From Patescibacteria group bacterium (GTDB lineage Bacteria > Patescibacteriota > Dojkabacteria > J137), in assembly GCA_963169855.1 (NCBI GenBank), contig CAUJCN010000002.1, positions 69,508 through 133,507 on the forward strand: 64,000 bases of DNA. The letters are read 5' to 3'. The translations under genes were made by a program, and so were the position numbers. Position 1 is the first letter of the stretch, and each line of letters starts with the position of its first letter. The notes below the pieces were generated by a model that saw nothing but the letters and a program-made list of their open reading frames with translations, searched no databases and was not told the origin of the DNA. Below are positions 3,901 to 42,709 of the stretch, one piece after another.

Positions 3901-5923
3901 TGTTATCTACAACAATTGTTCTTGAAGTAGCTTTTGTGTTTCCAGCTTCGTCTGTAGCAGCAGTTCTTAAAGTATAAGTTCCATCTGCTAATGTAGTTGT
4001 ATCAATATCACAATTGAATGTGAATGATGTTCCCCCGATTGATGAGTCTGCAGGAGTTGATCCGCAAGGCATTAAGAAAACAGTATTAGTATCGTTGTAA
4101 ACATTTACAGCAACTCTTTTCAACATCATATTATCTGTAGCGTGAACTTCAACGTTGTACGTTCCACCAACAATCATTCCATCTGAAGAAGGATCTACAA
4201 ATGAAATTCCTGGCTTAGTATTATCAACAAAGAATGTGTTTGTATCCATGCCCCAGGCGATGTCTTCGTCTAGAAACTGAGCTGAGAATACATACATTCC
4301 ATCTGGGTTTGTAGTTGTATCATAAGCACAAGTTACATCAAGTGAATCTCCTAAAAGATCTGCTCCTGGTGCTTCCTGACAATTTCCTACCAAGTTAGCA
4401 GGTCCGCTTTCGAATGCATCTTTCCAGAATCTTAAGTAGTAGCTGCCCATTCCAGAGTCATCGGTTGCTAAAGCTCTTCCTGTGATCGATCCTCTAACAT
4501 AAGAGTTTTCTACAGGTGTAACGATTGTTACAGATGGAGCTTCGTTAGGGATAACTGGGTCCTGTTCGAAGTCGTAAGTAATGTGATTAATCTGAACTTT
4601 GTCTACAACGATGTTCCATGAAGGATTCCAGTTTCCTAATCCAACACTTACAGCTCTTACAACTGCTGAAGGTGTAACACCAGGAATTGAGCTTAGAGGT
4701 TGATTTGAGTCATATCCTCCAGCTGGGTTCCATGAACCCCAGAATAAACCTCCATCAACATCCCATGTCTGCCATACATTATCTAAAACTGTTTCGTTGT
4801 AATAAGGTTCGTAAACAATATATTGATCAATAGATCCGTTTCCTTCATTGTCGATTCCTAATCTGAATGCTGCTCCAGCAAATTCAGGACCAGATACTTT
4901 CTTAGCGTCGAAACTTAAATTTGTAATTTCGCTTAGAGGAATTTCTACCGATAAAGTAGTTCTGCTTCTAGAAGCTGTAGTTTCGTCTGTAATTAGTTCT
5001 AATGCTCCAACCGGTAATGGTGAATCTGGTTGAGAAATGAAATTCACTTGAGCTCCACTTTCTGCAACAACAGACCATCCCTGCATTTCTGAAGGTCTAA
5101 CAATGTATGTTACTGGATCAGGAGTAGTTGGATTCGAGTAAGTAATAGAACATTCTGCTGACCATCCACTAACGTAAGGTGCAGTTGCTCTAACTTTAAA
5201 TGTATACGTTCCTTCACCTTCTGTGAATGCTCCAACGTAAGAATTTGTTCCTACTGTTGTTGTCCATTCTGGGAGACCAGGTGTTGTAACATGATATTCA
5301 TATTGAGTAGCTCCATCAAATGCATCCCATTGAGCTGTAACATCATAACTTTCTGTTGTAGATCCACAGGCTAATGTTTCTGGAGTTGGGATTTCCCATC
5401 TTAGATTCTGAGGAACACCCTGACAAGCAAATGAATTTAGGCTTGTAACAATATTATAATTTAGAGTATCTAAATTACCGATTGGAGTCATAGTTGCATC
5501 AACAACTCTAACTTCCCATCCTGCTAAACCTGCTGGACTATCTCCGCTGTTATCTAAGAAGATATTTGCGTTGATTCCTGATACATTAAGAGTTCCTAGA
5601 GTTGCAAGGTTGAACCAAGAACTGAATGAACCACCGTTAATAAAGTATCTTCCCTCTAAAGTATATTCGTCGTACCAATTTTGTACGCTTACTTCAAGAC
5701 CATCATTTGCAATCGCAGAACCGATTCCGCAAGCATTTCCTCCCACAAGCTGAGATGTAGATTCAACAATATCTACAACTGGTGCTGCAACAGGAAAACT
5801 TACTGGTAGTGGTTCAGCCTTTACATAGCTAATGAAAACCATTGGGTTAATCTGAAGTAAAAGTAGGGATGCGAGAACGGTAGATATGATTACACGCCTC
5901 AATCTAGTGGATTGAAAATTCAT
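980..5923 (-). CDS. giant multi-domain surface protein (adhesin-like) with N-terminal signal peptide and C-terminal TM anchor
   Basis: ORF 980..5992. Likely start at Met24 (5923) giving signal peptide MNFQSTRLRRVIISTVLASLLLLQ. Repeated Ig-like junctions (VDNTAPTV, IDTTAPTV, VDNTKPG), a PKD-like motif (VVDYGDGSS...HTYTHEGEYEV), a Cna-B/SdrD-B-like C-terminal domain (SGSVFDDINKN...GNYNIRIDRNDIPDNF), an acidic linker and a C-terminal hydrophobic helix with RRDE tail. Confidence 0.8.
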   Translation of the reverse strand: MNFQSTRLRRVIISTVLASLLLLQINPMVFISYVKAEPLPVSFPVAAPVVDIVESTSQLVGGNACGIGSAIANDGLEVSVQNWYDEYTLEGRYFINGGSFSSWFNLATLGTLNVSGINANIFLDNSGDSPAGLAGWEVRVVDATMTPIGNLDTLNYNIVTSLNSFACQGVPQNLRWEIPTPETLACGSTTESYDVTAQWDAFDGATQYEYHVTTPGLPEWTTTVGTNSYVGAFTEGEGTYTFKVRATAPYVSGWSAECSITYSNPTTPDPVTYIVRPSEMQGWSVVAESGAQVNFISQPDSPLPVGALELITDETTASRSRTTLSVEIPLSEITNLSFDAKKVSGPEFAGAAFRLGIDNEGNGSIDQYIVYEPYYNETVLDNVWQTWDVDGGLFWGSWNPAGGYDSNQPLSSIPGVTPSAVVRAVSVGLGNWNPSWNIVVDKVQINHITYDFEQDPVIPNEAPSVTIVTPVENSYVRGSITGRALATDDSGMGSYYLRFWKDAFESGPANLVGNCQEAPGADLLGDSLDVTCAYDTTTNPDGMYVFSAQFLDEDIAWGMDTNTFFVDNTKPGISFVDPSSDGMIVGGTYNVEVHATDNMMLKRVAVNVYNDTNTVFLMPCGSTPADSSIGGTSFTFNCDIDTTTLADGTYTLRTAATDEAGNTKATSRTIVVDNTAPTVGPIEVVADYDPYVNGIAFLIRANVSDAVAGINPFTCAVTTNFNVSNPESSDWTPGLYLFGRCVSGSLFETDGDELEINVRVEDNVGNIGYGEFIERIADSRDPDFNTFNVTPVSGNYTNGSPTLTSTVSDTVSPITECQARYKRLLWSGWINGVLTPVGLDATCVVNLSGLTHNSVYDFQMRVKDSAGHWEESNVIYNLRVDSQIPSADPSGFTSDPAINTPSNDNTVWVSWLNGGVDNKSGVDGYSYDFTPAPSTPDQVKDLEETDNEATSTPLADGVWWFNLSTVDNVGNWTSTAHYGPFIIDTTAPTVAEENQLQDATFYEGDSIPTLWDLTANDNFDIAEVCFYLTWSPIGETDLGCYADSLVENTEYTWDIAQLLADAGITHWDTSFLHEGAYEVSYYVVDEAGNESEIYSVNYYIENVIPSVDIESDQTITEGEEAIFTGWFSDPSCIEGESETEYEEGFTLLSISESEVYCDNRETPDDSDWVIVVDYGDGSSTTFSQSTPGNITIPSHTYTHEGEYEVTLMVCESESFYKYAKVASFAALADFVDYGWEGDWCHPVMCEIEEEEPVYDLLTEDYEEVVEFYATGNGEGMCGCDSVTVTVTNNAPSVSIATTPGDSTTLEAITMDANVLGGNAPFTYTWADGNFAGCTGNAEFVVTPATPGSYTCKVTVEDFDGDTATAEKTVVVNPAVITDLLPTVVLFGNSPATNNSGTVNVTAGSSFTITASLNNLGNPNYNFTFGGVCAGSVVNTGSSIFVSNAMNLTAGNYVCTVTVSDSDADVAVASVPVIVGSVLGVGNSGPQTPEPSEEEDDEQDILGSGVQTCDERFTLSGSVFDDINKNNTQESGEQGIAGVLVQVYYIENGDEVIVAEETTAADGSYEFEICPGNYNIRIDRNDIPDNFSVLGASDKEVSITDDAVENFNFVLGVQDNGGNGFNWWILLLIIIVIGGGTGVYLYAGRRDE

Positions 5924-6339
5924 ATAAATGAATATAAAAATTACACAGTAAAATAATTCAATTATAGCATCAAGATTTTTTTTTGCAGGCAAAATACACT
6001 ATAGGAAAAAAGTCTATATATGAATGAGCTTTGCTATTCTGTTTCTAATCGTGTAAACCTAGCAATTTGTTTTCCATTAACTGTTAGTTTCTCTAAAAAG
6101 TTTTCGATAGTTCTAACGAAGTTCACTCCTTCAAATTCTACGTAATCTGGAGAATAGACTACCCCAACTTCTTCTGTAGATTCAATAATTACGATATCAC
6201 TTATTGTATAGGTCTTCTCAACGCTTTTATAGTGAACATATTTATCACCTATATTGATAAGCTTTTTTGCATCTGCAATTTTAAGTTTTCTTCAGGTGAG
6301 TGCATACGGTTTAAAGTCGTTATAAAATAATAGTAATTA

Positions 6340-6771
6340 TTGCAGAAAAATATGCCACAAGCAAAATTAAAAACTCAAACAACTTCAGATGACCCAATAA
6401 AATTCATTGACTCTGTTGAGGATTTAGAGAAAAAAGAGATGAGCAAAATGATTTTAAAAATGATGGAAAGAGCTACTAAATCTAAGGCGAAGATGTGGGG
6501 AGAAACTATAGTTGGGTTTGGTGATGTCCATCTAAAGTATGAAAGCGGGAGAGAACTTGATTGGTTTAAAATGGGATTCTCACCAAGAAAAGGGCAAATG
6601 ACTTTGTACATCTTGAATGGATCTAATGAACAGAAAAAGCATTTGGACAAACTGGGTAAGTTTACAACTGGAAAAGGTTGTCTTTACATTAAGAAACTTG
6701 AAGATATAAATGTTGATGTTCTAGAAGATCTGATCAACGTTTCCGCAGATAAGGCTTACGGTCAGCAATAA
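6340..6771 (+). CDS. DUF1801 (YdhG-like) family protein
   Basis: 143 aa; WGETIVGFG...YESGRELDWFKMGFSPRKGQMTLYIL matches the DUF1801 signature as I recall it. Confidence 0.55.
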   Translation: MQKNMPQAKLKTQTTSDDPIKFIDSVEDLEKKEMSKMILKMMERATKSKAKMWGETIVGFGDVHLKYESGRELDWFKMGFSPRKGQMTLYILNGSNEQKKHLDKLGKFTTGKGCLYIKKLEDINVDVLEDLINVSADKAYGQQ

Positions 6772-6846
6772 AACGATTTAATACATGTCTTGGTGAGGCT
6801 CTCGAACCACACATGTATTTACTACAAATACACAGTAAATCACTAG

Positions 6847-6866
6847 ATTCCTGCATACGCAGGAAT
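6847..6866. terminator. bidirectional hairpin between convergent genes
   Basis: perfect inverted repeat attcctgc-atac-gcaggaat between the DUF1801 stop (6771) and the ABC exporter stop (6898). Confidence 0.45.
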
Positions 6867-6897
6867 GACGTTGTTAGGTGAAATTGAGTGTTAGGTT

Positions 6898-8703
6898 CTA
6901 CGAGTTTTTCTTTGTTTGGTTGATCAGTTCCAATGCCTGTTTATAATTTACCGGTTCGCTGATTTCTCCGTTTGCGATAAAGAAGATTTCATCTGCTTTG
7001 CTGATTGTATTTAATCTATGAGCAATAATGATCTTTGTTGTTTGTTCTGGTAACTTATCAAGAATTTCTTGTAACAGAGCTTCTGTAACCGTATCGATGT
7101 TTGCTGTTGCTTCGTCTAAGATTAATAGTTCTGGCTCTCGTAAGATAACTCTCAAGAATGCAATTAGTTGTTTTTGACCTAACGAAACGCTATCACTTGC
7201 ATTAGCCACTTCTGTCCCTAATCCATTTGGGAATCTTTCAATTAAACCTTCTAATCCCTTTTCTTTAAGAAGTGTTGTTAGTTTCTCTTCATCATATCCC
7301 TGGTACTTATCGTTTGAATAAAGAATATTATCCATGATTGTTCCCTGGAATAAGAATGGTTCTTGTAAAATGAATCCAACTTTTTTAGCCAATGACTCTT
7401 TATCGTAACTTTTGATATTCTTTCCATTCAAAAGAATTTCTCCTTCAACTGGATCGTATAATCTAGAAACCAATGCTGCCGTTGTGCTTTTTCCTCCTCC
7501 TGTTGGTCCAACAAGAGCATAAATTTTTCCCCTTTGTAGTTCTAAGTTCTCTTTCTTTAATATCATTTGTTCCGGATTGTACCCAAAACTAACATCTTTA
7601 AACTGTATTATTGGAGCCGATTTATCTTCATTTCTTGAATCTTCGATTACAGTTAAATTACTTTCTAGTTTCAATAAGTGAGAAATTCTTGCCCAGGCAG
7701 CTAAAGAAACTTGAATTGATGAAAAAAGTTGAGCCATAATTCTGAGTGGAGAATAGAATCTGTCAACGTATAGTGCGTAACTAACAAGTGTTCCGAACTC
7801 TAAAGCGCTAGTGAAGCTAATTCCTAAGAAGGAGAACACTCCGGTTAAAATCAAATTAATTCCTACGAAGTAAACTGAGAATAAAGCTAGGTTTCCAGCC
7901 ATATCGTAAATCGGAGTAAGAATATTATTTAAAATCCCAGCTTTTGTGTTAGCTTGTTTGTTTTCTTCGTTTACGTCTTTGAAGGATTCCCGGAAGTAAT
8001 CTTTTCTATTGAATGCTACTACAACTTTATAATTTGTTAAGCTCTCTTGAATTTCTGCTGATAGATTTCCAGTAGACTTCAAAGCCGATTTATTTGCTCT
8101 ATTAAGCATTCCACCTACAAAAGTAGTAATTACAAAAAGAATAATTGAAAAAGATAGACTGAAAATTCCTAGAATTGGATTAATTACTAACATTGCTCCT
8201 GCAACTCCGATCATCACAAATACATTTCCTATAAATCTCAAAAGAGTTTCTGAGAATGCCTGATTTAGCTTATCTGTATCGCTATTAATTCTGGAAATCA
8301 AATCCCCTGATTTATTTTCATTAAAGAATGCCAATGGTAGTGATTGAATTTTTTCGAAGATTTTTGCTCTAAGTTTCGCCAGTAGTTCTTGACCGATGAA
8401 TCCCATCAAAAGAATTTGAAAGTAACTAGCAATACTTGCTCCAATAAATAAAACCAGTATTCCAATAACTGCCTGTAAAAGTGCGTCCTTATCTCTATTT
8501 GCTAGAGCAGCTTGAGAAGCGTCTCCAATCATATTTGGAGTAACAATGTTAATTACAGAACCTAACAATACAAAGAATAGTGCAATTGCTGCGAGAAGAA
8601 GAATTCTTTTACCAAACCCTCCTGTAAACTGATTTAATTCTCTAACTAGAGTAATAAATGATACTCGCTTTTCGTTGTTTTCGTCGCTTAATTTGTAGTT
8701 CAT
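6898..8703 (-). CDS. ABC exporter subunit (fused TMD-NBD), heterodimer partner B
   Basis: 601 aa; six N-terminal TM helices; Walker A GPTGGGKST; signature degenerate (VSLGQKQ); Walker B LLILDEATANID. Confidence 0.85.
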   Translation of the reverse strand: MNYKLSDENNEKRVSFITLVRELNQFTGGFGKRILLLAAIALFFVLLGSVINIVTPNMIGDASQAALANRDKDALLQAVIGILVLFIGASIASYFQILLMGFIGQELLAKLRAKIFEKIQSLPLAFFNENKSGDLISRINSDTDKLNQAFSETLLRFIGNVFVMIGVAGAMLVINPILGIFSLSFSIILFVITTFVGGMLNRANKSALKSTGNLSAEIQESLTNYKVVVAFNRKDYFRESFKDVNEENKQANTKAGILNNILTPIYDMAGNLALFSVYFVGINLILTGVFSFLGISFTSALEFGTLVSYALYVDRFYSPLRIMAQLFSSIQVSLAAWARISHLLKLESNLTVIEDSRNEDKSAPIIQFKDVSFGYNPEQMILKKENLELQRGKIYALVGPTGGGKSTTAALVSRLYDPVEGEILLNGKNIKSYDKESLAKKVGFILQEPFLFQGTIMDNILYSNDKYQGYDEEKLTTLLKEKGLEGLIERFPNGLGTEVANASDSVSLGQKQLIAFLRVILREPELLILDEATANIDTVTEALLQEILDKLPEQTTKIIIAHRLNTISKADEIFFIANGEISEPVNYKQALELINQTKKNS

Positions 8704-10412
8704 TCTGTTGTTTGTTGAGAATTATAAATTTGTTGGTATTCAAAACTGTTCTTTAACAATTCTTCGTGCGTTCCTTTTGCAATAAGCTCTCCCTCCATAA
8801 TTAACAAAATCTGATCGTAATCTTTAATTGATTCAATCTTTTGAGTAATTGAAAGTAAAGTGATATCAGGATAATTTTTATCCAGGTTATCAATAATGTT
8901 CTTTTCTGTTTTGATATCGACTCTTGCTGTAAAGTCATCTAGCAATAGTACTTTTGGGTTAATAGATAGTGCTCTAGCGAGCGTTAGTCTTTGTTTCTGT
9001 CCACCAGATAATGATGAGCCTCTCTCAGTAATAATTGTTTCTTCTTTTTTATCTTGAGCCGCTACGAAGTCACTTAATTCTGCTGTACTAATTGCTTTGT
9101 TTAGATTCGATTCGTTAACTTCAGAATTAAATAGAATGTTCTCTTTAATTGTTGTATTGAAAATAACACTATCTTGGAAAACTAAAGCTACTTGTGAGTA
9201 AAAGTTTTCTATTTCGAATTCTTTAATATCAATTCCATCAATCGAAATCTTTCCTTCCGTTGCATCCTGCAGTCCTGCAATTATATTGAAAATTTGAGTT
9301 TTTCCTGCAGCTGTTGGTCCTACAATCGCATTCTTAGTGCCTGCTTTGATTTCGAAGGAAATATTATTTAAAATCTTCTTATTGTTAATCTCGTACGATA
9401 CATTCTCAAATTTAATTGCTCCTCTGATTTCAGCCTTTGTTTTTCCCAAGTCCTCTTTCTCTTTAGTATCTAACGTTTCTTTTATTCTTTTAATTGATGT
9501 GATAGATCTTCCAATTGTACTTGCAATGAATCCCATAAAGATTATTGGACCAATGAAAGTTCCTACGTAACTAAAGAAGGCTGTGTAGTCTCCAGGAGAC
9601 ATCCCTTGCCCACCTAGAGAGTTAATAAAATCAATTACCTGTTGACCTCCAAAATATACAACTGCAAGCAAAGCTAAGTTTGCAAGAATCGTAATTACTG
9701 GAATAAGTCCAGCGAATCCTTTTGTAATCTTCATTCCTACTTGTCTATTAAGCTCGTTTATATGAGAAAACTTTTCAATTTCTGTTCCACCGGCATTCAA
9801 AACTTTCGTTAAAGATGATCCTACAATGTTCTCGTTAATAACCAAGTTCATTTTGTCTAGATTCTTTTGAGCTTGTTCGAAGAATTTTCCAATAAAACTG
9901 AAAATCACTCCAAATGAAACCAACAGTAATGGAATCACAAGCATTACAATCAAACCTAGGTCTCTATTAATTGAAAGCATGGAGATTGAAGCTCCAATAA
10001 TCAATACTAATGAAGAGAAAACTGTAATAATGCTTTGATTGAAAAGCATTTTTACTGCATCTACATCGCTTGTAAGATTAGTTAGTAATTTTGAAGAAGT
10101 CAGTTCGTTAACACTCTTATATGATAAGAATGAAATTTTATTAATGATTCTTTTTCTAACATTCGCAGCAAAGTTCTCTGTAACTACATTAGACATTACT
10201 GTTATGACTACTGCAAAAATGAAAATGAGTGAAATCAATCCTACATATGTCAAAGCAAATTGATTTAAGTCTGATTCTCCGGTAAAAATCTTATTCAGCT
10301 CGACGGAAGCTACCCTTGGAAGAGCTAGTGCTAATAAGTTTTGACCTAATGAAAAGGCCAATACTATAATGATTCCAATGATTGTGGTTCTTTTAATAAT
10401 TCGATTATCCAT
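8700..10412 (-). CDS. ABC exporter subunit (fused TMD-NBD), heterodimer partner A
   Basis: 570 aa; Walker A GPTAAGKTQ; canonical signature LSGGQKQR; Walker B LLLDDF with Asp in place of the catalytic Glu; 4-bp ATGA overlap with the downstream partner. Confidence 0.85.
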   Translation of the reverse strand: MDNRIIKRTTIIGIIIVLAFSLGQNLLALALPRVASVELNKIFTGESDLNQFALTYVGLISLIFIFAVVITVMSNVVTENFAANVRKRIINKISFLSYKSVNELTSSKLLTNLTSDVDAVKMLFNQSIITVFSSLVLIIGASISMLSINRDLGLIVMLVIPLLLVSFGVIFSFIGKFFEQAQKNLDKMNLVINENIVGSSLTKVLNAGGTEIEKFSHINELNRQVGMKITKGFAGLIPVITILANLALLAVVYFGGQQVIDFINSLGGQGMSPGDYTAFFSYVGTFIGPIIFMGFIASTIGRSITSIKRIKETLDTKEKEDLGKTKAEIRGAIKFENVSYEINNKKILNNISFEIKAGTKNAIVGPTAAGKTQIFNIIAGLQDATEGKISIDGIDIKEFEIENFYSQVALVFQDSVIFNTTIKENILFNSEVNESNLNKAISTAELSDFVAAQDKKEETIITERGSSLSGGQKQRLTLARALSINPKVLLLDDFTARVDIKTEKNIIDNLDKNYPDITLLSITQKIESIKDYDQILLIMEGELIAKGTHEELLKNSFEYQQIYNSQQTTE

Positions 10413-10840
10413 ATGAGTTTTGGCAGATGAACACTTTAAGTGCCAGAAGGCAGTGTAACTCCGAATAGAGCCTGTGTCAATGGCATTTGACTACTTTAAA
10501 CATCGTGTTTAACTCGGCTTAATTGCACGGATACTCTCAATTAGAAACCTTTCACTGAGACGCTTTTTCTAAAGAATGCAGGTAAACTGCGAATTTCTAG
10601 ACTAGAAGCAGTTTTAGAAACTCTCGACTATTTGCTTCAGGAAAAGAGAAAATTGTAGCCTAGAGAACCTACATTCGATGCGTTTGATAACAAGACCATA
10701 CACAATATGAAACTAGAAATGGAAGAACTAGTTAGAGACCGATTCTCCAAAATATTAAAAGGATATTTTTCAGACTTTGTATCGCAGGAAAGTTAAAATG
10801 AGCATTTAGTTCAAATTAAATTTCAAGTAAAGTATATTCA

Positions 10841-11773
10841 ATGGACACAATATTTGAAGTACCTCTACTTTCTCAATTCCCTCAAGCAAAGATGGAGAAA
10901 TTCTTAACTTTAGTAGAATCCTACAGTCCTTCGCAAGAGGATTTAGAAACAAAAGCATTTCCAAACAGGGTAACTCAATTGCGCGTGGGAAACACTTCTG
11001 TAACAGTTGGCCTTCATGGAATAGAATATCCTCAGAAGAGCTTCGATCAAATGAGAAGAAACTTAGGATCAATATTTAGAATTGTCTTTTCAGACAAGGC
11101 TTTTATCCATAATTGCCTGAGTTATCAAATTTCCCAACTCAATTCCTCTAGTTCTAGATCGACTTTAAGTGAAGTTGTGAAGTCGTATAAAGAAGCGAAA
11201 CAAATTGTTAGATTACCAGAACTAGAAGAGCAGAGACAAAAATACGCTAATCAGTTAGGTGATAGGGTTCAATTTGGCGTTGCTTATAAACATGTAGATT
11301 CAAAAGAGTTTCTTAGAAAATATCCAGAAGTATTGTTAGCAACGTTTCTTTTTCAGAATGTGTTTGCTTATGCATTTGAAATTTTCGTAAACTCACTTTC
11401 TACGACCTCCGCTGCTAGAGACCTAATTGATGATTTAAGAAAAATCATCCCTGGGTTTACTTCGGGGAATGTAGTTGATGAATATTTAGGCTATGCTTTG
11501 CTTAGATTTAAAGAATCAGGTTCAGTCATCGTAATCTTTGACGATATTGCGAAAGAAATGAATGATCTAAAAGCTTTTCACAATTCTTACACTCTCCCAA
11601 GTGGTGAGCTACTCAGAACAATGTGCCTAGCTAAATCATTTCTGACCGAACAGACTGGCGGCGTACAACGAAATCAGAGAAACGTTCTTGCCGATACCTT
11701 GGAGTACATCAAAAGCCATCGCGCAGACTTTGCAGAACCACTCGGTTTCATTTCTTCTGAACTGTCTTATTAA
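10841..11773 (+). CDS. hypothetical protein
   Basis: 310-aa ORF with no recognisable motif. Confidence 0.45.
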   Translation: MDTIFEVPLLSQFPQAKMEKFLTLVESYSPSQEDLETKAFPNRVTQLRVGNTSVTVGLHGIEYPQKSFDQMRRNLGSIFRIVFSDKAFIHNCLSYQISQLNSSSSRSTLSEVVKSYKEAKQIVRLPELEEQRQKYANQLGDRVQFGVAYKHVDSKEFLRKYPEVLLATFLFQNVFAYAFEIFVNSLSTTSAARDLIDDLRKIIPGFTSGNVVDEYLGYALLRFKESGSVIVIFDDIAKEMNDLKAFHNSYTLPSGELLRTMCLAKSFLTEQTGGVQRNQRNVLADTLEYIKSHRADFAEPLGFISSELSY

Positions 11774-11829
11774 TTTCTTCAGTTGTCTATTTTAAACTTT
11801 TTGATATAATTCTTTAGATCTTTGAAAAT

Positions 11830-11901
11830 GCAGGTATAGTATAGTGGTTATTATTTCGGTTTTCCAAACCGCGGACGGGGGTTCGAATCCCCCTACCTGC
11901 T
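11830..11901 (+). tRNA. tRNA-Gly (anticodon TCC)
   Basis: Hand-folded cloverleaf: acceptor GCAGGTA/TACCTGC, anticodon loop TTTCCAA, T-arm GGGGG-TTCGAAT-CCCCC, 72 nt, no encoded CCA. Confidence 0.8.
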
Positions 11902-12007
11902 TTCAAGATTTAAACTTCAAATTACAATTTCCCAATCATTGCAATATTTCTCCATTTTCTTTATCCTAACCTTATAGAAGTATTTTATTTAAGTTATATT
12001 TACTTAT

Positions 12008-12352
12008 ATGAAAACACTCATAAGTTTAGTTGTAAGCGCTGTGGCTGTTTTAATTGCTGCTTATGTAATTCCTGGTGTAACTGTTAATGGTTTCTTTACA
12101 GCTGTAGTTGTAGCAGTAATCTTAGGTTTAGTAAATATGTTTATAAGACCAATCATTTCTCTGCTTACTCTTCCACTGAATATACTCACGCTTGGATTAT
12201 TTAGTTTCGTAATTACTGCTTTAATGATTATGTTAACAGGTGCTATTGTTCCAGGATTCACTGTTTCTGGATTTTTAACTGCATTGATTTTTGGAGTTGT
12301 TCTGTCACTTGTTAACGGATTACTATTCTCCTTAATGGGAGACGATAAATAA
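12008..12352 (+). CDS. DUF360 / phage-holin-4_2 (YvlD-like) family small membrane protein
   Basis: 114 aa, 4 TM helices; IPG...LGLVNMFIRPIISLLTLPLNILTLGLFSFVI motif pattern. Confidence 0.55.
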   Translation: MKTLISLVVSAVAVLIAAYVIPGVTVNGFFTAVVVAVILGLVNMFIRPIISLLTLPLNILTLGLFSFVITALMIMLTGAIVPGFTVSGFLTALIFGVVLSLVNGLLFSLMGDDK

Positions 12353-12374
12353 TTTTACTAATTAACAGAAATTT

Positions 12375-12740
12375 ATGGGAGTTCCTCAAAAGTACGCAGA
12401 TATCGATGACTATATTAAGAATTTCTCTCCTGAAGTTCAGGATGTATTAGAAAGAATTCGAAAATTAGTTCATAAAATTGCACCTGATGTAGAAGAGTCA
12501 ATTACTTACCATATGCCAACATTCAAAGTTGCGGGGAAAGGAATCATATACTTTGCTGCTTGGTCAAAACACGTTGCTTTTTACGCGCTCCCAGTAGATT
12601 TACCAGAATTCAAAGAAGAGTTTGCACCCTACATCCAGTCGAAAGGAACTGTTCAGTTTAAATTCGATGCACCAATGCCTTGGGACTTAATTGAAAAAGT
12701 AATTAAATATAGAGCTAAAAATCCAATTGATTACCAATAA
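12375..12740 (+). CDS. DUF1801 (YdhG-like) family protein, second paralog
   Basis: 121 aa; IDDYI...VQDVLERIRKLVHKIAPDVEESITYHMPTF...GKGIIYFAAWSKHVAFY pattern. Confidence 0.55.
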   Translation: MGVPQKYADIDDYIKNFSPEVQDVLERIRKLVHKIAPDVEESITYHMPTFKVAGKGIIYFAAWSKHVAFYALPVDLPEFKEEFAPYIQSKGTVQFKFDAPMPWDLIEKVIKYRAKNPIDYQ

Positions 12741-15994: not shown

Positions 15995-16306
15995 GTGACC
16001 GTGATGAACTACTTACTCGTTGCGCCTACGTTATCAGCGCCAACTCTAGATACTGTAAAAGAACTGTCGTCGAAAGTTTTTACCAAAATTGAAAAACTAC
16101 TAAAAAAGTTTGGACAAGAAGGATGTGTCGTAAAGATTTCGGTTCTCAGAGATGGCAATTCTTATAAAGTAAATGTAGAACTTTTAAACCATAACCTGTA
16201 CAAACCATTTATTGCTTTTAGGGACTCAGATTTAAGAAGAGCAATTGGAATGTCTGCTGTTAAATTAAAAGCTCAACTCCTCAACTTACATAATAAAAAT
16301 AAATAA
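15995..16306 (+). CDS. hpf: ribosome hibernation factor (HPF/RaiA, S30AE family)
   Basis: ~100 aa; VKISVLRDGNSYKVNVEL and AFRDSDLRRAIGMSAVKLKAQLLNLHNK resemble the YfiA/HPF beta-alpha-beta-beta-beta-alpha pattern; true start may be ATG at 16004. Confidence 0.6.
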   Translation: MTVMNYLLVAPTLSAPTLDTVKELSSKVFTKIEKLLKKFGQEGCVVKISVLRDGNSYKVNVELLNHNLYKPFIAFRDSDLRRAIGMSAVKLKAQLLNLHNKNK

Positions 16307-16318
16307 TAAGTTATCTTC

Positions 16319-16352
16319 ACTCCCCCTAGCAATGCTTTGGGGGAGTTTTTTG
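16319..16352 (+). terminator. rho-independent terminator after hpf
   Basis: actccccc-N12-gggggagt followed by TTTTTT. Confidence 0.65.
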
Positions 16353-16403: not shown

Positions 16404-16979
16404 ATGAAAAAAGTTAGAAACGCTGTCTTAGCCTCTTTTGGCTTACTTACACTTTTTGCTCCTGCTGTTAGTGCTCAATATTACTATTACTACGAAAGTT
16501 CACCAGAAGCTGGTGCATTTTTAGCTGGATTCGGTGTTTTATACCTTATCTTGTGCTTATGTGGAGGGTTAGTTGCTTTAGTTGCATATATCTTTACATC
16601 TATGCAGTATGCAAAGATTTTCGAGAAAAATGGAATGGCTGATAAGAAAGTATTGGCATTTATTCCTATCGCACAGAACTATTACTTAGCTAAAGCTGTG
16701 GGTGAAGATGAATACGCTTGGGTTCAAGTTGCAGTTCCATTGGGAATTTTAATCTCTATCCCACTTACATTCTTTATAATTGGATTCTGCATTCTTTTCC
16801 CTTTGGCAATTGTTGGTATTGTGTTCGGAGTTAAGCTTTGGTTAAAAGCTGCTGAAAGAATGGGACAAGACCAAATTTGGGGAATCGCTGCTTCTTTAGC
16901 AAGTTTCATTCCACTTGTTGGATATTTCATTCAACTTTATGCAATTTATGTAATTGCGGAAGGAACTGTAAAGAAATAG
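16404..16979 (+). CDS. secreted/membrane protein of unknown function (signal peptide plus 3-4 TM helices)
   Basis: 191 aa; signal peptide with AVSA|QYYYYY site; conceivably a pilin or VirB2/VirB3-like secretion component given the neighbouring VirB4-like gene, but no supporting motif. Confidence 0.45.
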   Translation: MKKVRNAVLASFGLLTLFAPAVSAQYYYYYESSPEAGAFLAGFGVLYLILCLCGGLVALVAYIFTSMQYAKIFEKNGMADKKVLAFIPIAQNYYLAKAVGEDEYAWVQVAVPLGILISIPLTFFIIGFCILFPLAIVGIVFGVKLWLKAAERMGQDQIWGIAASLASFIPLVGYFIQLYAIYVIAEGTVKK

Positions 16980-17003
16980 AAATCTAAAAGATTTAAATAC
17001 GAG

Positions 17004-17040
17004 AAGACTAGAAGATTAAAATTCTAGTCTTTTCAATTTT
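17004..17040 (+). terminator. rho-independent terminator
   Basis: 10-bp stem aagactagaa / ttctagtctt with 8-nt loop, followed by ttcaatttt. Confidence 0.5.
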
Positions 17041-17121
17041 CAAACTATTCTTAAGCAACCTTTCAACTACTTTTGCACTACCCATATTCACCTTGATTTC
17101 TGATTATGATAGACTGATTGC

Positions 17122-17793
17122 ATGGGAATTTTTGACTCAAGAAAAATTAGTACTCAAGACCATTTAGACATTGCTGATATTCGTGACGACTTAGTTGTTC
17201 TAAAGAACGGAAAAGTTGCAGTAGTTTTAGAAACATCTTCTTTAAACTTTGAACTGTTAGACCCAAAAGAACAGGATGGGAAAATAGGTTCATTTGCAGC
17301 ATTTTTAAATGCTATCAATTTTCCTATTCAAATTGTAATTAGAACTCAAAGAACTGACATTGCTAGGTATCAGAAATTGCTCGAAGAATATAAAGCAAAG
17401 ACAGCAACTCAGAAGGTTGTTCAACAAATTAATAACTACCAGGCTTTTGTGAACGAATTGACACAAACAACTCAAATTCTAGATAAAAGATTCTTTGCAA
17501 TAATTCCTACAATAAAGCTTCCTGTTATACAAACAAACATTATTAAGCAAATACTTGGAAGAGAAGAAATTCTAGAAAATATTCCTTCGATTGTCAGAAA
17601 AGCAAAAGAAGAGCTTTATCCTAAAAGAGATCATGTACTTAAACAGTTCGCAAATATGAACATCGCAGCAAAACAGTTAACTAACGATGAATTAATAAAA
17701 CTCTACTATTCTGTCTACGAACCTGATAAATTAGGTATTGAGGTACTTAACTTAAAGGCCGAAGATATCGGTAGTTCAATGGTAACTTCTTAA
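17122..17793 (+). CDS. virB4: VirB4/TrbE-family ATPase, N-terminal segment (ends at an in-frame TAA)
   Basis: 223 aa; DIADIRDDLVVLKNGKVAVVLETSSLNFELLDPKEQDGKIGSFAAFLNAINFPIQIVIRTQR resembles the VirB4/TrbE N-terminal region; same reading frame as the next ORF. Confidence 0.55.
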   Translation: MGIFDSRKISTQDHLDIADIRDDLVVLKNGKVAVVLETSSLNFELLDPKEQDGKIGSFAAFLNAINFPIQIVIRTQRTDIARYQKLLEEYKAKTATQKVVQQINNYQAFVNELTQTTQILDKRFFAIIPTIKLPVIQTNIIKQILGREEILENIPSIVRKAKEELYPKRDHVLKQFANMNIAAKQLTNDELIKLYYSVYEPDKLGIEVLNLKAEDIGSSMVTS

Positions 17794-17796
17794 ATT

Positions 17797-19638
17797 ATGG
17801 GATTATTTAGTTTATTATTTCCAAAATCAGATACAAAACCTGCAGTTAGCAAGGAAGAGGCTGCTATCCTGGATCAGGAAAGGAAGTCAGTGGAAAAATT
17901 TGCAAAAGGTTTGGTCGATGTAAAAGACATCATTGCACCATCAGCGATTGAGGTGAATTTCAACAATATGATTATCGGAAATAAATTTTTCAGATCATAC
18001 TTTGCAATTGGATTCCCTACTTTTGTTTCTCCAAGTTGGCTTGGACCACTAATCAATTTTGAATATCCTATCGATATTAGTACCTATTACTATCCAAACG
18101 ATACAGGTGATGTATTGAAACTTTTGAAAAGAAAAATTGCGGAACTTCAGGCAACAATTAATATCGAAATGGATGCTGGAAGACCAGCGGATCCAATTAT
18201 TCAAGAACAGTTGAAAAGTGCGATTTTGGTTCAAGAACAACTTGCTGCTGGGAATGAACAATTCTTTCAATATGCTTTATACATGACTGTTAGAGCTGAT
18301 ACGTTAGAAGAACTAGATAGAATTTCAAAGAACTTGGAATCTACTATGGCAACAATGGGCGTTGTTATTAAGGTAGCGACTCTTCAACAAGAAGAAGCTT
18401 TCCAAAGTACAATTCCTTACGGAATGGACAAGATTAACATGACTAGAAATCTTGATACCACAGCCATTGCTACAACATTCCCATTCGTAAGTTCGGAACT
18501 GACCATGGAAAAGGGAGTTTTGTATGGAATTAATTTACACAATAGTTCGTTAGTTATTTTTGATAGATTCTCTTTACCAAATGCAAATTCAGTAATTCTC
18601 GCTACTTCTGGAGCTGGTAAATCTTACGCAGTTAAACTAGAAGCAGTTAGATCTTTGATGCTTGGAACAGACATTATTATTATCGACCCCGAAAAAGAAT
18701 TTGATAGATTGTGTGCCGCTGTTGGAGGAGAATACATTTCTTTCTCTCAAGATGGTGCTCAAAAGTTGAATCCATTCGAATTATCAGGTGTTTACAGTCC
18801 AGATGAAGATGAGCTTAGATTCAAAATTCTTACACTTTCTGGTTTAATTAGAATTATGCTTGGAGGAAGCGTAACTGCAGAGGAAGGAGCGATCTTAGAT
18901 AGAGCTTTGATTTTGACCTATAAAGAAAAAGGAATTACTCCAGATCCATCGACGCATACAAAAGAAGCTCCTTTATTAGAAGACTTGTATAAAATTTTGA
19001 ACGCCATGTCCGAAGAGGAAGCACATTCGATGGCACGAAGATTGGAAAAATATATTCGAGGTTCTGCTGCTGGAGTTTTTGATCAAAAATCATCAGTGGA
19101 TATTAAAAATAATTTTACAGTTTTCAGTATTAGAGACTTGGCAGACGATTTAAGACCAATGGCCATGTACGTTATGTTGGATTTTATCTGGACAAAGATT
19201 AAACGAGATAAGAAAAAAAGGCTTCTACTTATCGACGAGGCTTGGATTATGATGCAGTATCCTGATGCAGCTAGGTTTGTATATTCAATTGCGAAAAGAG
19301 CTAGAAAATATGGGCTAGGTTTAACAACAATTACACAAGATGTAGACGACTTCCTAAGTTCAGATTTTGGAAAAGCAATCGTAAGTAACTCATCTATGCA
19401 GTTACTTTTAAAACAGTCTCCTTCAGCAATCGAAAAGATTCAGAAAGTTTTCTACCTGACAGAGGGAGAAAAAGAATTCTTAATGAGTGCTGGAATTGGA
19501 CAAGGATTATTCTTTGCAGGTGCAAACCATGTTGCTATGCAGGTTGTAGCAAGTGAAGATGAACATACTTTAATTACAACCAACCCTCAAGAATTACAAA
19601 GAATCCAAGAAGAAGAGAACGGTGGAATTACCTCTTGA
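17797..19638 (+). CDS. virB4: VirB4/TrbE/TraC-family secretion ATPase (main body)
   Basis: 613 aa; Walker A ILATSGAGKSY; IDPEKEF...GGEYISFS...LNPFEL; Walker B LLLIDEAWIMM (the VirB4-specific DEAW); TTITQDVDDF. Confidence 0.8.
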   Translation: MGLFSLLFPKSDTKPAVSKEEAAILDQERKSVEKFAKGLVDVKDIIAPSAIEVNFNNMIIGNKFFRSYFAIGFPTFVSPSWLGPLINFEYPIDISTYYYPNDTGDVLKLLKRKIAELQATINIEMDAGRPADPIIQEQLKSAILVQEQLAAGNEQFFQYALYMTVRADTLEELDRISKNLESTMATMGVVIKVATLQQEEAFQSTIPYGMDKINMTRNLDTTAIATTFPFVSSELTMEKGVLYGINLHNSSLVIFDRFSLPNANSVILATSGAGKSYAVKLEAVRSLMLGTDIIIIDPEKEFDRLCAAVGGEYISFSQDGAQKLNPFELSGVYSPDEDELRFKILTLSGLIRIMLGGSVTAEEGAILDRALILTYKEKGITPDPSTHTKEAPLLEDLYKILNAMSEEEAHSMARRLEKYIRGSAAGVFDQKSSVDIKNNFTVFSIRDLADDLRPMAMYVMLDFIWTKIKRDKKKRLLLIDEAWIMMQYPDAARFVYSIAKRARKYGLGLTTITQDVDDFLSSDFGKAIVSNSSMQLLLKQSPSAIEKIQKVFYLTEGEKEFLMSAGIGQGLFFAGANHVAMQVVASEDEHTLITTNPQELQRIQEEENGGITS

Positions 19639-19687
19639 CACGGATATCGAAAAATTATTTAATAGTGCTAGATATTAATATAAAACT

Positions 19688-20518
19688 ATGTTTGGAACAG
19701 AAAGTTTAAGAAATGCTTTACAAGATAATCTTGATTCAAAGAATAGATCTAGAACAGCAAAGATTACTAAAGGATTAATTGGTCCTGGATTAATGGCGTC
19801 TGGAGGAGGTGCAATGGTTGCTGGAGGAGCATTGGCAGCTACAGGAATGTTAGCTCCTATTATTCCATTTGGAGTACTTACTGCTGGAGCTGGAGTATTT
19901 ACAGTTGCAACAGCTAAAACCGTTTGGAACACAGGATGGGGAGTATTAGAAAGATTGAGAGAAAAAAGACAAGGTGTAGATGTCAGAAAACAAGCTGATG
20001 AGTACAAAAGACAAATGGATGCACTGGAATCAAAAATTGGATCTTCAACAAACCAGAAAGTAATTGATAAGGCAGAAAGAGCAAAAGACAGATTGATTGG
20101 ACAAGTAGAGCGAATGAATGTAAAAGCAAGTTCAAAAGAAATCGATGCTATTAGAACTGGGAATTTACCTGCCCAAAAGAACTTTGGCTCTGCAGCAAGA
20201 ACTACAGATAGAATAAGAAACACTTACGATGCTGGTCAAAGAGCAGAACTAGTTGCAGCAGCTAAAGAGGAGTTATCCGCAATTATTCAGTCGAATGTTA
20301 TGGATACAAGCGCAATAGCAGCAGAAATCAAAAGAATAACTAAACTTGATCAAAAGTTCACAGAAGCTGAGGCACAGGATTTAATAACGTACGCTAAGAA
20401 TGAAATCGCAGACAAAAAAGCATATGACAAAATGATAGCTGATTTGAATGACGATTTTAAAAAAGGAGCTGATCTTATTGATGCTGTTGACTGGGAAGAT
20501 GAGCTTACAAAACCTTAA
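19688..20518 (+). CDS. membrane protein with two Gly/Ala-rich TM helices and a long coiled-coil domain; unknown function
   Basis: 276 aa; N-terminus GLIGPGLMASGGGAMVAGGALAATGMLAPIIPFGVLTAGAGVFTVATA; rest is charged and helical. Confidence 0.45.
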   Translation: MFGTESLRNALQDNLDSKNRSRTAKITKGLIGPGLMASGGGAMVAGGALAATGMLAPIIPFGVLTAGAGVFTVATAKTVWNTGWGVLERLREKRQGVDVRKQADEYKRQMDALESKIGSSTNQKVIDKAERAKDRLIGQVERMNVKASSKEIDAIRTGNLPAQKNFGSAARTTDRIRNTYDAGQRAELVAAAKEELSAIIQSNVMDTSAIAAEIKRITKLDQKFTEAEAQDLITYAKNEIADKKAYDKMIADLNDDFKKGADLIDAVDWEDELTKP

Positions 20519-20538
20519 TTAACATTTAACTTCATGAT

Positions 20539-20886
20539 ATGGAAGAACTATTAAGAACATTAGTAAACACAATTTTAAATGAACAATCAGATGAGGACAG
20601 AGCTAAAGCATTAGAAGTGCTAATGAGTAATTCTGCAAGAACTCTGGTTGATAAAGTTGCAGGAAGTGCAAACGAAGACCAGCAAGCTCAACTCGATCAA
20701 ATCGAAGAGGAAGATATTACTTTAGGTGATGTTGTTAGAATCTTTTCAATTGATGCTATTAGAGATAGTATGACTGATGCAGTTGTAGAAGAAGCTGGAA
20801 AGTTCATCGAAGAAAACTCTGCTCTTGTTACTGACGAAAAGATTCAGCAAATTGAGTCTGTAGTTAATCAACTCCAAACTGTATAA
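20539..20886 (+). CDS. small acidic hypothetical protein
   Basis: 115 aa, D/E-rich. Confidence 0.4.
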   Translation: MEELLRTLVNTILNEQSDEDRAKALEVLMSNSARTLVDKVAGSANEDQQAQLDQIEEEDITLGDVVRIFSIDAIRDSMTDAVVEEAGKFIEENSALVTDEKIQQIESVVNQLQTV

Positions 20887-20896
20887 GAATCTGTTA

Positions 20897-20924
20897 AAAT
20901 GCAGAGTTTATACTTTGCATTTTT
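20897..20924 (+). other. hairpin (aaaatgca / tgcatttt) immediately upstream of the tgt start
   Basis: 8-bp inverted repeat ending 3 nt before the ATG at 20928. Confidence 0.3.
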
Positions 20925-20927
20925 CAG

Positions 20928-22001
20928 ATGATTAAACCAAAATTTCCCATATTCCTACCTGACGCCACTTACGGTTCTGTTAAATCTACCACTTTTAATG
21001 ATTTAAAAGAGATTGGAACTCCTGGTGTTGTAACAACTACTCTTCATATTGAGAATGCCATTGGAAGCGAGTATATCAAGGAATTTGGAGGTATTAAGAA
21101 GTTCTTTGGTTGGGAGAATTTATTATTGACTGATAGCGGTGGATGGCAGGTTTTTTCTCTAATCAATTCTAAGGGTGCATCATCTAAAAACAAAGCTACC
21201 GAAGCTGGATGTTCTTTTGTTGATGAAAAAACTGGTAAACAAAGACTCTTAACTCCTGAGTCCTCAATTCAAATTCAATATAATTTAGACCCCGACATCC
21301 TGACTGTGCTGGATTTCCCAATCTTAGGAAATGCAACATTTGCTCAGAGAAAAGAATGTGTAAGAATAAACACAGTATGGGCTAAGAGAGCCAAGACTGC
21401 ATATGTAAATACTTATGGAGATTCGTCAGGTAAATTACTGGGGGCAGTTATTCAAGGAGGAAACGATTTCGAGTTAAGAAAGCAATCTGCTCAGGAACTT
21501 TTGGAATTGGACTTCGATTTATACAACTTTGGCGGGTTACCTCTACATACCCCAATTACTTGGAAAACTAAGTCCGAAGAAGGTTTCTACCACGAAATGC
21601 TTCAATATGTTTCCGAACTTATCCCATCAAGTAAAACCAAGTACGCAATGGGGGTTGGACAACCAACGGATATTGCATTCTGTGTAGATGTTGGTTGGCA
21701 AATTTTTGACAGTGTCCTGCCAACAAGAAATGCAAGACATGGATATTTATATGTATCCGAAGGGCAAGGAGAAGAGACGAAATCATACAAAAATCTTTCT
21801 CACGATATTTTGAGAGTTAAAAAAGAGGATTATAAATTTGATGAAAAACCTGTTGATGCCAATTGTAAATGCGAATGCTGCACCACAGTCTCTCGAGCGT
21901 ACTTAAGACACTTAATTAGAATCAACGAACCAGCAGGTTTTAGACTGGCAACAATCCATAACCTATGGTTCTATCAGAGATGGATGGAAAAACTAAACTA
22001 A
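20928..22001 (+). CDS. tgt: tRNA-guanine transglycosylase family protein (Tgt homolog) with an atypical substrate-pocket motif
   Basis: LLTDSGGWQVFSL, LTPESSIQIQ, AVIQGG, YAMGVGQPTDIA, VLPTRNARHG, zinc site CKCECC...SRAYLRHLIRINE all align to bacterial Tgt; the canonical GGLAVGE is replaced by GGLPLHT. Confidence 0.8.
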   Translation: MIKPKFPIFLPDATYGSVKSTTFNDLKEIGTPGVVTTTLHIENAIGSEYIKEFGGIKKFFGWENLLLTDSGGWQVFSLINSKGASSKNKATEAGCSFVDEKTGKQRLLTPESSIQIQYNLDPDILTVLDFPILGNATFAQRKECVRINTVWAKRAKTAYVNTYGDSSGKLLGAVIQGGNDFELRKQSAQELLELDFDLYNFGGLPLHTPITWKTKSEEGFYHEMLQYVSELIPSSKTKYAMGVGQPTDIAFCVDVGWQIFDSVLPTRNARHGYLYVSEGQGEETKSYKNLSHDILRVKKEDYKFDEKPVDANCKCECCTTVSRAYLRHLIRINEPAGFRLATIHNLWFYQRWMEKLN

Positions 22002-42415: not shown

Positions 42416-42433
42416 TGGGATCTGGAAGTAGTG

Positions 42434-42709
42434 ATGCGATATACAGAATTTATGTGGCAAAGATTCGAAGATGACATTAAACGACTTAACCACCTGAGAG
42501 GCGTAATGAATCAAAAAGCCGATGAGATTAGACCTACACCGCACAATACTCAAAAGAGTAAAGCTGAGATTACCGAAGAAGAAAATCAGATGCTCAGACA
42601 ATATCTAGTACACATACTTCAATACGGTACGCCTGAGGAGAGGAAAAACATACTAGGCGGTATCAAATCAAAGTTTGAACTAACAGACAGGAGATTAATC
42701 CTTAAATAA
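42434..42709 (+). CDS. small hypothetical helical protein, divergent from the previous gene
   Basis: MRYTEFMWQRFEDDIKRLNHLRGV...LTDRRLILK; codon usage slightly GC-richer than neighbours. Confidence 0.35.
   Translation: MRYTEFMWQRFEDDIKRLNHLRGVMNQKADEIRPTPHNTQKSKAEITEEENQMLRQYLVHILQYGTPEERKNILGGIKSKFELTDRRLILK

Follow-up and report, generated by a model that had tools for sequence, protein, structure and literature searches.

In a 64,000-nucleotide (nt) stretch of DNA from a Dojkabacteria-like member of the Patescibacteria (contig CAUJCN010000002.1; referred to below as the window), we found two adjacent genes, for a TrsD-like protein and a VirB4 ATPase, that very probably encode the cytoplasmic energizing ATPase of the chromosomal, relaxase-free type IV secretion system (T4SS) known from Patescibacteria, the genes on either side not being core components of it. 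The original prediction, made from the letters of the window, had described a minimal VirB4-centered cluster, perhaps a reduced type IV secretion or DNA-uptake apparatus with components too divergent to recognize. What it took for a minimal cluster is the ATPase pair alone, an ordinary member of a system that has already been described. A T4SS ATPase that lacks a neighboring relaxase or coupling protein agrees with the published picture (PMC12102498, PMC10633639), but the idea of the flanking genes as hidden components was not supported. The system derives from the conjugation machinery of monoderm bacteria (the MPF-FATA class). It is probably not conjugative, and classical conjugation is unlikely: in the span searched for partner genes, which comprised the window and 10 kb beyond each end (~84 kb), no relaxase, type IV coupling protein (T4CP), or integrase/replication set accompanies VirB4.

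VirB4 has been found in 2,417 of 3,035 Patescibacteria genomes, where its sequences form a monophyletic clade that branches within MPF-FATA (Quinonero-Coronel et al. 2025, PMC12102498). In the same survey, TrsD is the most abundant virB4-associated component (1,664 near virB4), and PrgI/VirB3, VirB6, and VirB2-like pilins are widespread, relaxases are nearly absent, and T4CP genes lie mostly far from virB4; VirB3 is near virB4 for 880 of its 1,649 homologues, with far fewer in Microgenomatia and Gracilibacteria, and portions of the dataset score Dojkabacteria genomes as VirB4 positive (PMC12102498). The T4SS locus of Southlakia epibionticum (SEML1_0006-0019), which resembles Gram-positive conjugation loci and has pilin genes and no recognizable coupling or relaxase proteins, is essential for epibiotic growth (Wang et al. 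2023, PMC10633639). The Patescibacteria T4SS, viewed as a possible route for macromolecules of the host (2025 review, PMC12857230; 2026 preprint), belongs to a small set of machines that have proved essential for these ultrasmall bacteria to live as epibionts. The present locus adds little to that picture, since it is another instance of the catalogued TrsD and VirB4 pair. Specific to it are the lost adjacency to PrgI in its subclade and a variable slot of orphan genes downstream, and nothing else.

The VirB4 ATPase and its TrsD-like partner

The VirB4-like ATPase named in the original prediction was verified. Its 613-amino-acid (aa) sequence matches NCBIfam NF045971 with an E value of 9e-119 and 397.8 bits, above the curated cutoff of 325, and Pfam PF19044 with an E value of 3e-27 (95.7 bits; cutoff, 25.8). 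The Walker A (GxxGxGKS/T) and Walker B (hhhhDE) motifs are both intact, and the nearest solved structure is PDB 4AG5, the C-terminal domain of a Thermoanaerobacter VirB4 (E value of 1e-46). The alignment to NF045971 covers positions 176 to 734 of 752, and the N-terminal ~175 residues are missing from the same polypeptide.

A counterpart of that missing part is encoded 3 nt upstream, by a gene that the prediction had passed over. The open reading frame (ORF) matches NF045975 (VirB4_plasma) over profile positions 100 to 279 (E value of 8e-10) and NF041427 (TrsD/TraD) over positions 12 to 199 of 201, with an E value of 3e-6 and 27.1 bits for a curated cutoff of 200. A match to the TraC-like family PF26593 is on record for it in precomputed Pfam data, and a PDB sequence search with it returned nothing meaningful. 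Because this ORF corresponds to the N-terminal region of a VirB4 profile and the 613-aa ORF starts at position 176 of the CD1110 profile (NF045971), VirB4 is split here into two polypeptides. Judged by these alignments, the TrsD-like protein is predicted to be the VirB4 N-terminal domain made as a separate polypeptide, and the pair to be a complete VirB4 in two pieces.

We sampled relatives by a VirB4 scan with one genome per species, which confirmed 249 of them; the best 80 were kept as loci (L001 and so on), in which ORFs were called and clustered and gene order was mapped, giving 81 genomes for comparison with the window included. In 70 of the 80 loci, the gene immediately preceding VirB4 is a same-strand TrsD homologue, and the median distance between the two is 3 nt. 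The loci without this arrangement are mainly those of Gracilibacteria and Peribacteria, which have longer VirB4 ORFs. A frameshift artefact was considered as the cause of the split and rejected, the split being kept in 70 of the 80 genomes. It is the known TrsD-type arrangement and not a truncation.

All of the best 80 of the 249 relatives are from Patescibacteria-type metagenome-assembled genomes, with 45 to 96% amino acid identity to the window VirB4. They include Dojkabacteria/WS6, Wirth-, Gracili-, Peri-, Kazan, Berkel-, Nomura-, and Doudnabacteria, and the closest carry the label Dojkabacteria or generic "Saccharibacteria" binning names. The identity of these relatives and the MPF-FATA-type best family suggest, by sequence comparison, that the window VirB4 belongs to the Patescibacteria lineage. 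One locus, L070 (CAZRZA010000001.1), is labeled "uncultured Gammaproteobacteria" yet has the PrgI-TrsD-VirB4 order typical of Patescibacteria and a VirB4 46% identical to ours; the label is probably wrong.

The window locus shares with the T4SS of the Patescibacteria clade a chromosomal, highly conserved, MPF-FATA-derived VirB4 with a separate TrsD-like gene directly upstream, as well as the lack of a relaxase or nearby coupling protein. It differs in that the PrgI/VirB3, VirB6, and VirB2-like pilin genes normally found with virB4 are not adjacent in the window and its Dojkabacteria subclade, and proximity to the origin was not seen (neither dnaA nor dnaN is among the Pfam results for the window, no specific search for them having been made). 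In TrsD-TrsE (TraD-TraE) of the staphylococcal MPF-FATA plasmids pGO1 and pSK41, a small homologue of the VirB4 N terminus is likewise encoded just upstream of the VirB4 ATPase (PMC12102498). Those genes, however, are conjugation genes on plasmids that also encode a relaxase and a coupling protein and have the full trs operon, whereas the window pair is chromosomal and isolated and its TrsD-like score falls far under the family cutoff. The best-scoring curated family is CD1110 VirB4, from CTn2-type conjugative transposons of Clostridioides difficile, which has the same ATPase domain organization. CD1110 is a single polypeptide of ~750 aa on mobile elements, in contrast to the window VirB4, for which positions 1 to 175 would be supplied in trans by the TrsD-like ORF.

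Among solved structures, the C-terminal domain of Thermoanaerobacter pseudethanolicus VirB4 (4AG5/4AG6) shares its P-loop and Walker B residues with the window protein, and TrwK/VirB4 of R388 (7O41) matches with an E value of 3e-6. These similarities are limited to the C-terminal ATPase domain, and no structure of a split TrsD and VirB4 pair is known. The archaeal Ced system also uses a VirB4/HerA-type ATPase, CedB, with no relaxase and offers a conceptual model of a system that imports and does not export. CedB is distant, however (E value of 9e-14), and no CedA-type partner appeared in the family searches, none having been specifically sought.

The pair is strongly conserved. Synonymous changes have reached saturation between the window and both L001 and L002; the values that follow are of nonsynonymous divergence (dN). 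Between the window and L002, dN is 0.059 for VirB4, 0.064 for TrsD, 0.081 for PheS, 0.119 for tRNA-guanine transglycosylase (Tgt), and 0.33 for the 191-aa membrane protein encoded upstream of the pair; between the window and L001, it is 0.034 for VirB4 and 0.63 for the 276-aa orphan encoded downstream. The ATPase pair is under tighter constraint than an aminoacyl-tRNA synthetase, which is unusually strong for a secretion ATPase. That the pair has a lower dN than PheS argues for an important cellular role and against the decaying remnant of a mobile element, and evolution slower than that of PheS and Tgt fits an essential role in Dojkabacteria, too. The pair is vertically inherited.

By analogy with characterized VirB4 proteins, the TrsD-like protein and VirB4 would come together on the inner side of the membrane, presumably as a complex. 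The pair would oligomerize and dock on membrane subunits of the VirB3/PrgI and VirB6 types, and ATP hydrolysis would drive assembly of the channel, possibly also of VirB2-like pili, and the transfer of substrate. The literature on the phylum suggests that such a channel may serve exchange with a host and not conjugation, moving macromolecules between the cell, a probable epibiont, and its host cell.

PrgI, VirB6, and other partner genes

The second most conserved neighbor in the 80 loci is PrgI/VirB3, a protein with two transmembrane (TM) helices encoded directly upstream of TrsD in 38 of them, including most of L022 to L080. PF12666 is annotated on 119 of 120 database relatives of the PrgI profile, among the matches listed (120 of 1,775). 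We built a PrgI hidden Markov model (HMM) from 28 relatives and searched it in the loci, the window ORFs, and the 10-kb flanks. It matched with E values of 1e-29 to 1e-44 in most of L022 to L079, the Gracilibacteria and Peribacteria group excluded. A weakly TrbL/VirB6-like protein with nine TM helices is encoded near TrsD-VirB4 in several lineages, RadA or a PilB-like ATPase is also nearby in some loci, and membrane proteins frequently follow VirB4 in lineages other than ours. Because PrgI- and VirB6-like genes lie next to or near TrsD-VirB4 in other lineages, we take the ATPase to be part of a multisubunit system.

Close relatives of the window look different. In the ~25 nearest loci (L001 to L021, L024, L031, L043, and L049; VirB4 at least 71% identical), the 8 kb around VirB4 contain no PrgI, and the PrgI HMM gave no match with an E value below 1 in the window or its 10-kb flanks; the ATPase pair thus stands alone in this Dojkabacteria subclade. 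The prediction had reported no VirD4, relaxase, VirB6, or VirB8, and Pfam sweeps, precomputed Pfam data, and custom HMMs confirmed this for the 64 kb as well as the 10-kb flanks, where PrgI is missing, too. There was no match to the TrbL/VirB6, TrbC, or T4SS_pilin Pfam families in the 64 kb, nor was there a large polytopic ORF or an array of small signal-peptide ORFs with two TM helices. HMMs of the neighbor families from the 80 loci (PrgI, VirB6-like c27, c8, c4, c3, c6, and others) found nothing among the window ORFs or in the 10-kb flanks. Excessive divergence, which the prediction had offered as the reason for the missing partners, does not fit the ease with which PrgI is recognized in related genomes; it is just not at this locus.

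Several of these results weigh against the pair being the energizing ATPase of the Patescibacteria T4SS. PrgI/VirB3, VirB6, a VirB2-like pilin array, and T4CP are all missing from the ~84 kb, and neither VirB6, a pilin array, nor T4CP occurs within 8 kb of VirB4 in the ~25 loci of the same subclade. The TrsD match, moreover, scores under the NCBIfam curated cutoff (27 bits versus 200). We presume that the membrane subunits are encoded elsewhere in the genome, which is an assumption made from a scan of ~84 kb.

TrsD-VirB4 might instead be a stand-alone ATPase that has lost its T4SS channel and been reused, for a Ced-like DNA translocation or in some other envelope machine. The absence of PrgI and VirB6 within 8 kb in every locus of the subclade, and across ~84 kb here, speaks for such reuse, as do the very strong purifying selection that the pair is nonetheless under and the weak similarity to CedB. 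The CedB match, however, is ~100 orders of magnitude weaker than that to CD1110 VirB4. Dispersed T4SS genes are common in Patescibacteria, as the VirB3 counts given above illustrate (PMC12102498), and the scan for partner genes spanned ~84 kb rather than the whole genome. We consider reuse unlikely. Also unlikely, to about the same degree, is that in this subclade TrsD-VirB4 has been uncoupled from the PrgI/VirB6 platform and works with lineage-specific membrane proteins or with none, the downstream slot holding strain-specific cargo or host-specificity factors. Since, in this subclade, the pair is separated from PrgI and lies beside a variable orphan slot, such genomes may be undercalled by neighborhood-based T4SS detection.

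Two other arrangements were seen among the more distant loci. In deeper-branching Dojkabacteria (L023 to L048; for example, L034 positions 1638 to 10438), there is a conserved block of genes for a PEGA-like protein, a ~1,036-aa protein, a GreA-like protein, PrgI, TrsD, VirB4, and a 190-aa protein with two TM helices. The ~1,036-aa protein is epimerase-like/DUF4012-like; it and the PEGA-like and GreA-like proteins were named by reading their sequences. PrgI of this block has a long C-terminal extension (265 to 524 aa versus ~145 to 190 aa in other classes), and the protein with two TM helices downstream of VirB4 (cluster c4) is a candidate T4SS subunit. In candidate division Kazan (L073, positions 10666 to 12408, and L074), a PilB-like T2SSE ATPase (Pfam E value of 1e-114) is encoded two genes downstream of VirB4, so that the ATPase genes of a type IV pilus and of a T4SS are close together.

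Genes flanking the ATPase pair

Three further proteins were assigned to the cluster by the original prediction, and their descriptions were accurate. The 191-aa protein upstream (ORF 16404) has a signal-peptide-like N terminus, a Tyr-rich stretch, and three to four hydrophobic TM helices. The 276-aa protein downstream (ORF 19688) has a hydrophobic hairpin of two TM helices that is 43% Gly plus Ala, followed by a long helical region; the prediction had called the protein coiled coil. The 115-aa protein after it (ORF 20539) is indeed small and acidic. Their assignment to a cluster is another matter. The prediction had suggested family searches, structure predictions, and co-occurrence across related genomes as checks. 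None of the three proteins, nor that of ORF 22231, matched a T4SS family in Pfam, NCBIfam, PHROGs, or PADLOC, the only matches of the four, all subthreshold, being to DUF5684, LeoBC, and phrog_1095. The AF2 models of ORF 16404 and ORF 19688 had no Foldseek match in PDB at an E value of ≤1e-3, and the flanking genes do not co-occur with VirB4 in a conserved way, so no conserved cluster surrounds the ATPase genes. The last 1.07 kb of the interval given for the cluster encodes Tgt, a housekeeping neighbor. These outcomes go largely against the proposal.

ORF 19688 follows VirB4 after 49 nt and ORF 20539 follows after another 20 nt, on the same strand and with no terminator predicted between the three genes. 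The sole homologue of ORF 19688 is protein P0002 of L001, which is 39 to 41% identical, though the VirB4 proteins of these two genomes are 96% identical. No second homologue was found in 5.8 billion clustered sequences or when 1.84 billion representatives were searched exhaustively with HMMER. Between the two proteins, the hairpin is nearly invariant and the helical C-terminal remainder has diverged. A PDB sequence search gave nothing meaningful. PrgI similarity was judged by an N-terminal VPQN..E.K.FG.LT.KQF motif followed by a TM hairpin; hhalign gave a probability of 4%, and there was no Pfam PrgI match. The AF2 model has a pLDDT of 60, and its syntaxin-like helical-bundle Foldseek matches were dismissed as generic hits of a low-confidence model. 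The PADLOC LeoBC match (E value of 2.5e-4; 18 bits) is weak and lies over compositionally biased sequence. We also considered that ORF 19688 might be spurious, opposite an ORF at 19675 to 20223 on the minus strand, and rejected this, as the homologue in L001 keeps the hairpin and gene callers call the gene on nine contigs. For ORF 20539, the only homologue found is again in L001 (65% identical), and no family was reached at the curated thresholds of Pfam, NCBIfam, PHROGs, and PADLOC.

The slot between VirB4 and Tgt (window 19639 to 20927) varies between strains. The window and L001 have the two plus-strand orphans of 276 and 115 aa. In L002, L088, and L091, whose VirB4 is ~93% identical, both are absent from the slot, and a single unrelated gene for an acidic, low-complexity protein of 488 to 515 aa lies there on the opposite strand. 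These three strains keep the order HPF-like gene, ORF 16404-type gene, TrsD, VirB4, Tgt, and PheS, with Tgt, syntenic with PheS, forming the right edge of the variable slot.

ORF 16404 is limited to few close relatives. It resembles DUF5684 (PF18936) with 19.2 bits, below the gathering threshold of 27.4, and seven relatives of it were found among 5.8 billion protein clusters. A gene of this type is present in 7 of the 81 genomes compared and in a few metagenome relatives. It lies upstream of TrsD in the window, in L001 to L004 and L031, and in JGI contigs L088 to L093, it lies downstream of VirB4 in L009, and it is not near VirB4 in most of the subclade. The AF2 model (pLDDT of 75) is all helical; hhalign against PrgI gave a probability of 2%, and there was no Pfam PrgI match. 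Between this gene and TrsD, there is a palindromic stem, AAGACTAGAA/TTCTAGTCTT, followed by TTCAATTTTC on the plus strand (the scan reported the minus strand), and this is likely a terminator that would separate ORF 16404 from the ATPase genes. Since the gene is flanked by this and another terminator-like hairpin, it seems to have its own transcript, and it is probably not part of the secretion machine.

The most plausible view of the three proteins is that they are products of lineage-specific genes in a variable slot of the chromosome and not conserved subunits of a machine. We regard them as bystanders because their occupancy is variable, homologues are few, the probability of similarity to PrgI is 2 to 4% for ORFs 16404 and 19688, and no credible match was found in PHROGs, PADLOC, or PDB.

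A different role for the downstream orphans has to be weighed, namely, that ORFs 19688 and 20539 form a strain-variable, T4SS-linked cassette, either a membrane-inserting effector with a chaperone or immunity partner or a host-specificity module. The slot holds alternative orphans in different strains, and the conserved Gly/Ala hairpin of ORF 19688 is joined to a fast-diverging exposed region (dN of 0.63). The protein is, moreover, paired with a small acidic one, and the two genes are probably cotranscribed with VirB4; hypervariable arrays of VirB2-like genes near virB4 are known in the phylum (PMC12102498). Homology to effector, toxin, or immunity families was not found in Pfam, NCBIfam, PHROGs, or PADLOC, however, and neither the LeoBC match nor the low-confidence structure model adds to the case. 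Adjacency alone is weak in Patescibacteria, where orphan genes are common, and we judge such a cassette distinctly improbable.

More doubtful still is the idea closest to the original prediction, in which ORFs 16404, 19688, and 20539 would be divergent analogues of VirB3, VirB6, or VirB8, forming with VirB4 a self-contained minimal apparatus for secretion or DNA uptake. The same-strand spacing behind VirB4 with no predicted terminator, the nearly invariant membrane hairpin of ORF 19688 in an otherwise diverged protein, and the membrane proteins that often come after VirB4 in other lineages speak for this, as does the finding of ORF 16404-type genes on either side of the ATPase genes (in the window group they precede them, in L009 they follow). 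But ORF 19688 has one homologue among 1.84 billion representatives, and in L002, L088, and L091, the two downstream orphans are swapped for an opposite-strand gene next to a VirB4 and TrsD that are ~90% identical to ours. ORF 16404 sits between terminator-like hairpins and away from VirB4 in most of the subclade, and no T4SS family or fold was matched by any of the three. Dispensable structural subunits would also be unexpected for an ATPase evolving more slowly than PheS.

Chromosomal setting and other genes of the window

The window reads as chromosome and not as a mobile element. Its Pfam content includes ABC exporters, HSP20, CobW, Tgt, PheS, EF-P, an EpmA-like protein, and RmuC, and further genes encode MiaA, Pth, UvrA, DnaK/GrpE/HrcA, and a sortase. 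There is also a methyltransferase that we take to be HemK/PrmC-like from its sequence and motif, its Pfam methyltransferase matches being weak. The sequence is also found unchanged on a 131.7-kb Logan contig, and a contig of 817.8 kb is on record for it. The order of housekeeping genes around TrsD-VirB4 is kept in relatives, no integrase was found in Pfam sweeps of the 64-kb window or the ~84-kb span, and the composition profile of the window has no obvious GC anomaly. It is accordingly most improbable that the locus is what decay has left of an integrated conjugative element or plasmid, stripped of relaxase, coupling protein, and channel genes: although CD1110-type VirB4 is typical of integrated conjugative elements and conjugative transposons of Firmicutes and the ATPase genes alone remain here, the catalytic motifs are intact, dN is below that of PheS and Tgt, gene order is conserved, orthologues extend throughout Patescibacteria, and the Pfam sweeps found neither integrase nor relaxase.

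The VirB4 locus itself comprises seven codirectional plus-strand ORFs between positions 15995 and 22001 (Table 1).

Table 1. Features of the VirB4 locus (window positions, except for the last row)
Feature	Position	Strand	Basis
HPF/S30AE-like protein, weak	15995-16306	+	Family search
Terminator-like hairpin followed by T run, between HPF-like gene and ORF 16404	16323-16343	+	Consensus scan and sequence
Membrane protein, 191 aa, weakly DUF5684-like (ORF 16404)	16404-16979	+	PF18936, E 0.0019, below cutoff
Inverted repeat, 10-bp stem, followed by T-rich sequence, between ORF 16404 and TrsD-like gene	17004-17031	.	Scan and sequence
TrsD-like protein, 223 aa, core of module	17122-17793	+	NCBIfam NF045975 and NF041427; Pfam PF26593
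VirB4 ATPase, 613 aa, MPF-FATA/CD1110 type, core of module	17797-19638	+	NF045971, PF19044
Walker A ATSGAGKS, aa 269-276 of VirB4	18601-18624	+	Sequence; aligned to P-loop of 4AG5
Walker B LLLIDEAW, aa 476-483 of VirB4	19222-19245	+	Sequence; aligned to VVDEAW of 4AG5
Orphan, 276 aa, Gly/Ala-rich hairpin of two TM helices at ~aa 28-85 (ORF 19688)	19688-20518	+	Homologue comparison
Orphan, 115 aa, acidic, travels with ORF 19688 (ORF 20539)	20539-20886	+	Isoelectric point of 4.05
tRNA-guanine transglycosylase Tgt, 357 aa	20928-22001	+	PF01702, E 1e-85; TIGR00449, E 1e-82
Slot gene of sister strains (positions in their own loci)	L002 9863-11329; L088 9166-10698; L091 9179-10726	-	ORF comparison

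Some other genes of the window were noted in passing. Between grpE and hrcA, at 60781 to 61119 on the minus strand, there is a gene for a 112-aa member of the 23S rRNA intervening-sequence protein family (PF05635, precomputed). Four large ORFs have neither a Pfam family nor a predicted TM helix: 47274 to 49157 (minus strand; 627 aa), 49185 to 50285 (minus strand; 366 aa), 54181 to 55509 (plus strand; 442 aa), and 58440 to 59693 (minus strand; 417 aa), the last of these lying between DnaK and GrpE. The 203-aa protein encoded at 41990 to 42601 on the minus strand has a Cap15 cyclic-dinucleotide receptor domain (Pfam E value of 7e-18) and matches the PADLOC models of CBASS "2TM" effectors with an E value of 7e-32. 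No CD-NTase was recognized among its scanned neighbors, so that this Patescibacteria genome may carry a CBASS effector that is orphaned or degenerate. Finally, a 1,670-aa surface protein with Ig-like, PKD, and SdrD-B domains is encoded at 980 to 5992 on the minus strand and a sortase is encoded at 62043 to 62714 on the plus strand; the first may be an adhesin and the second the enzyme that anchors it, which would be of relevance to an epibiotic lifestyle.

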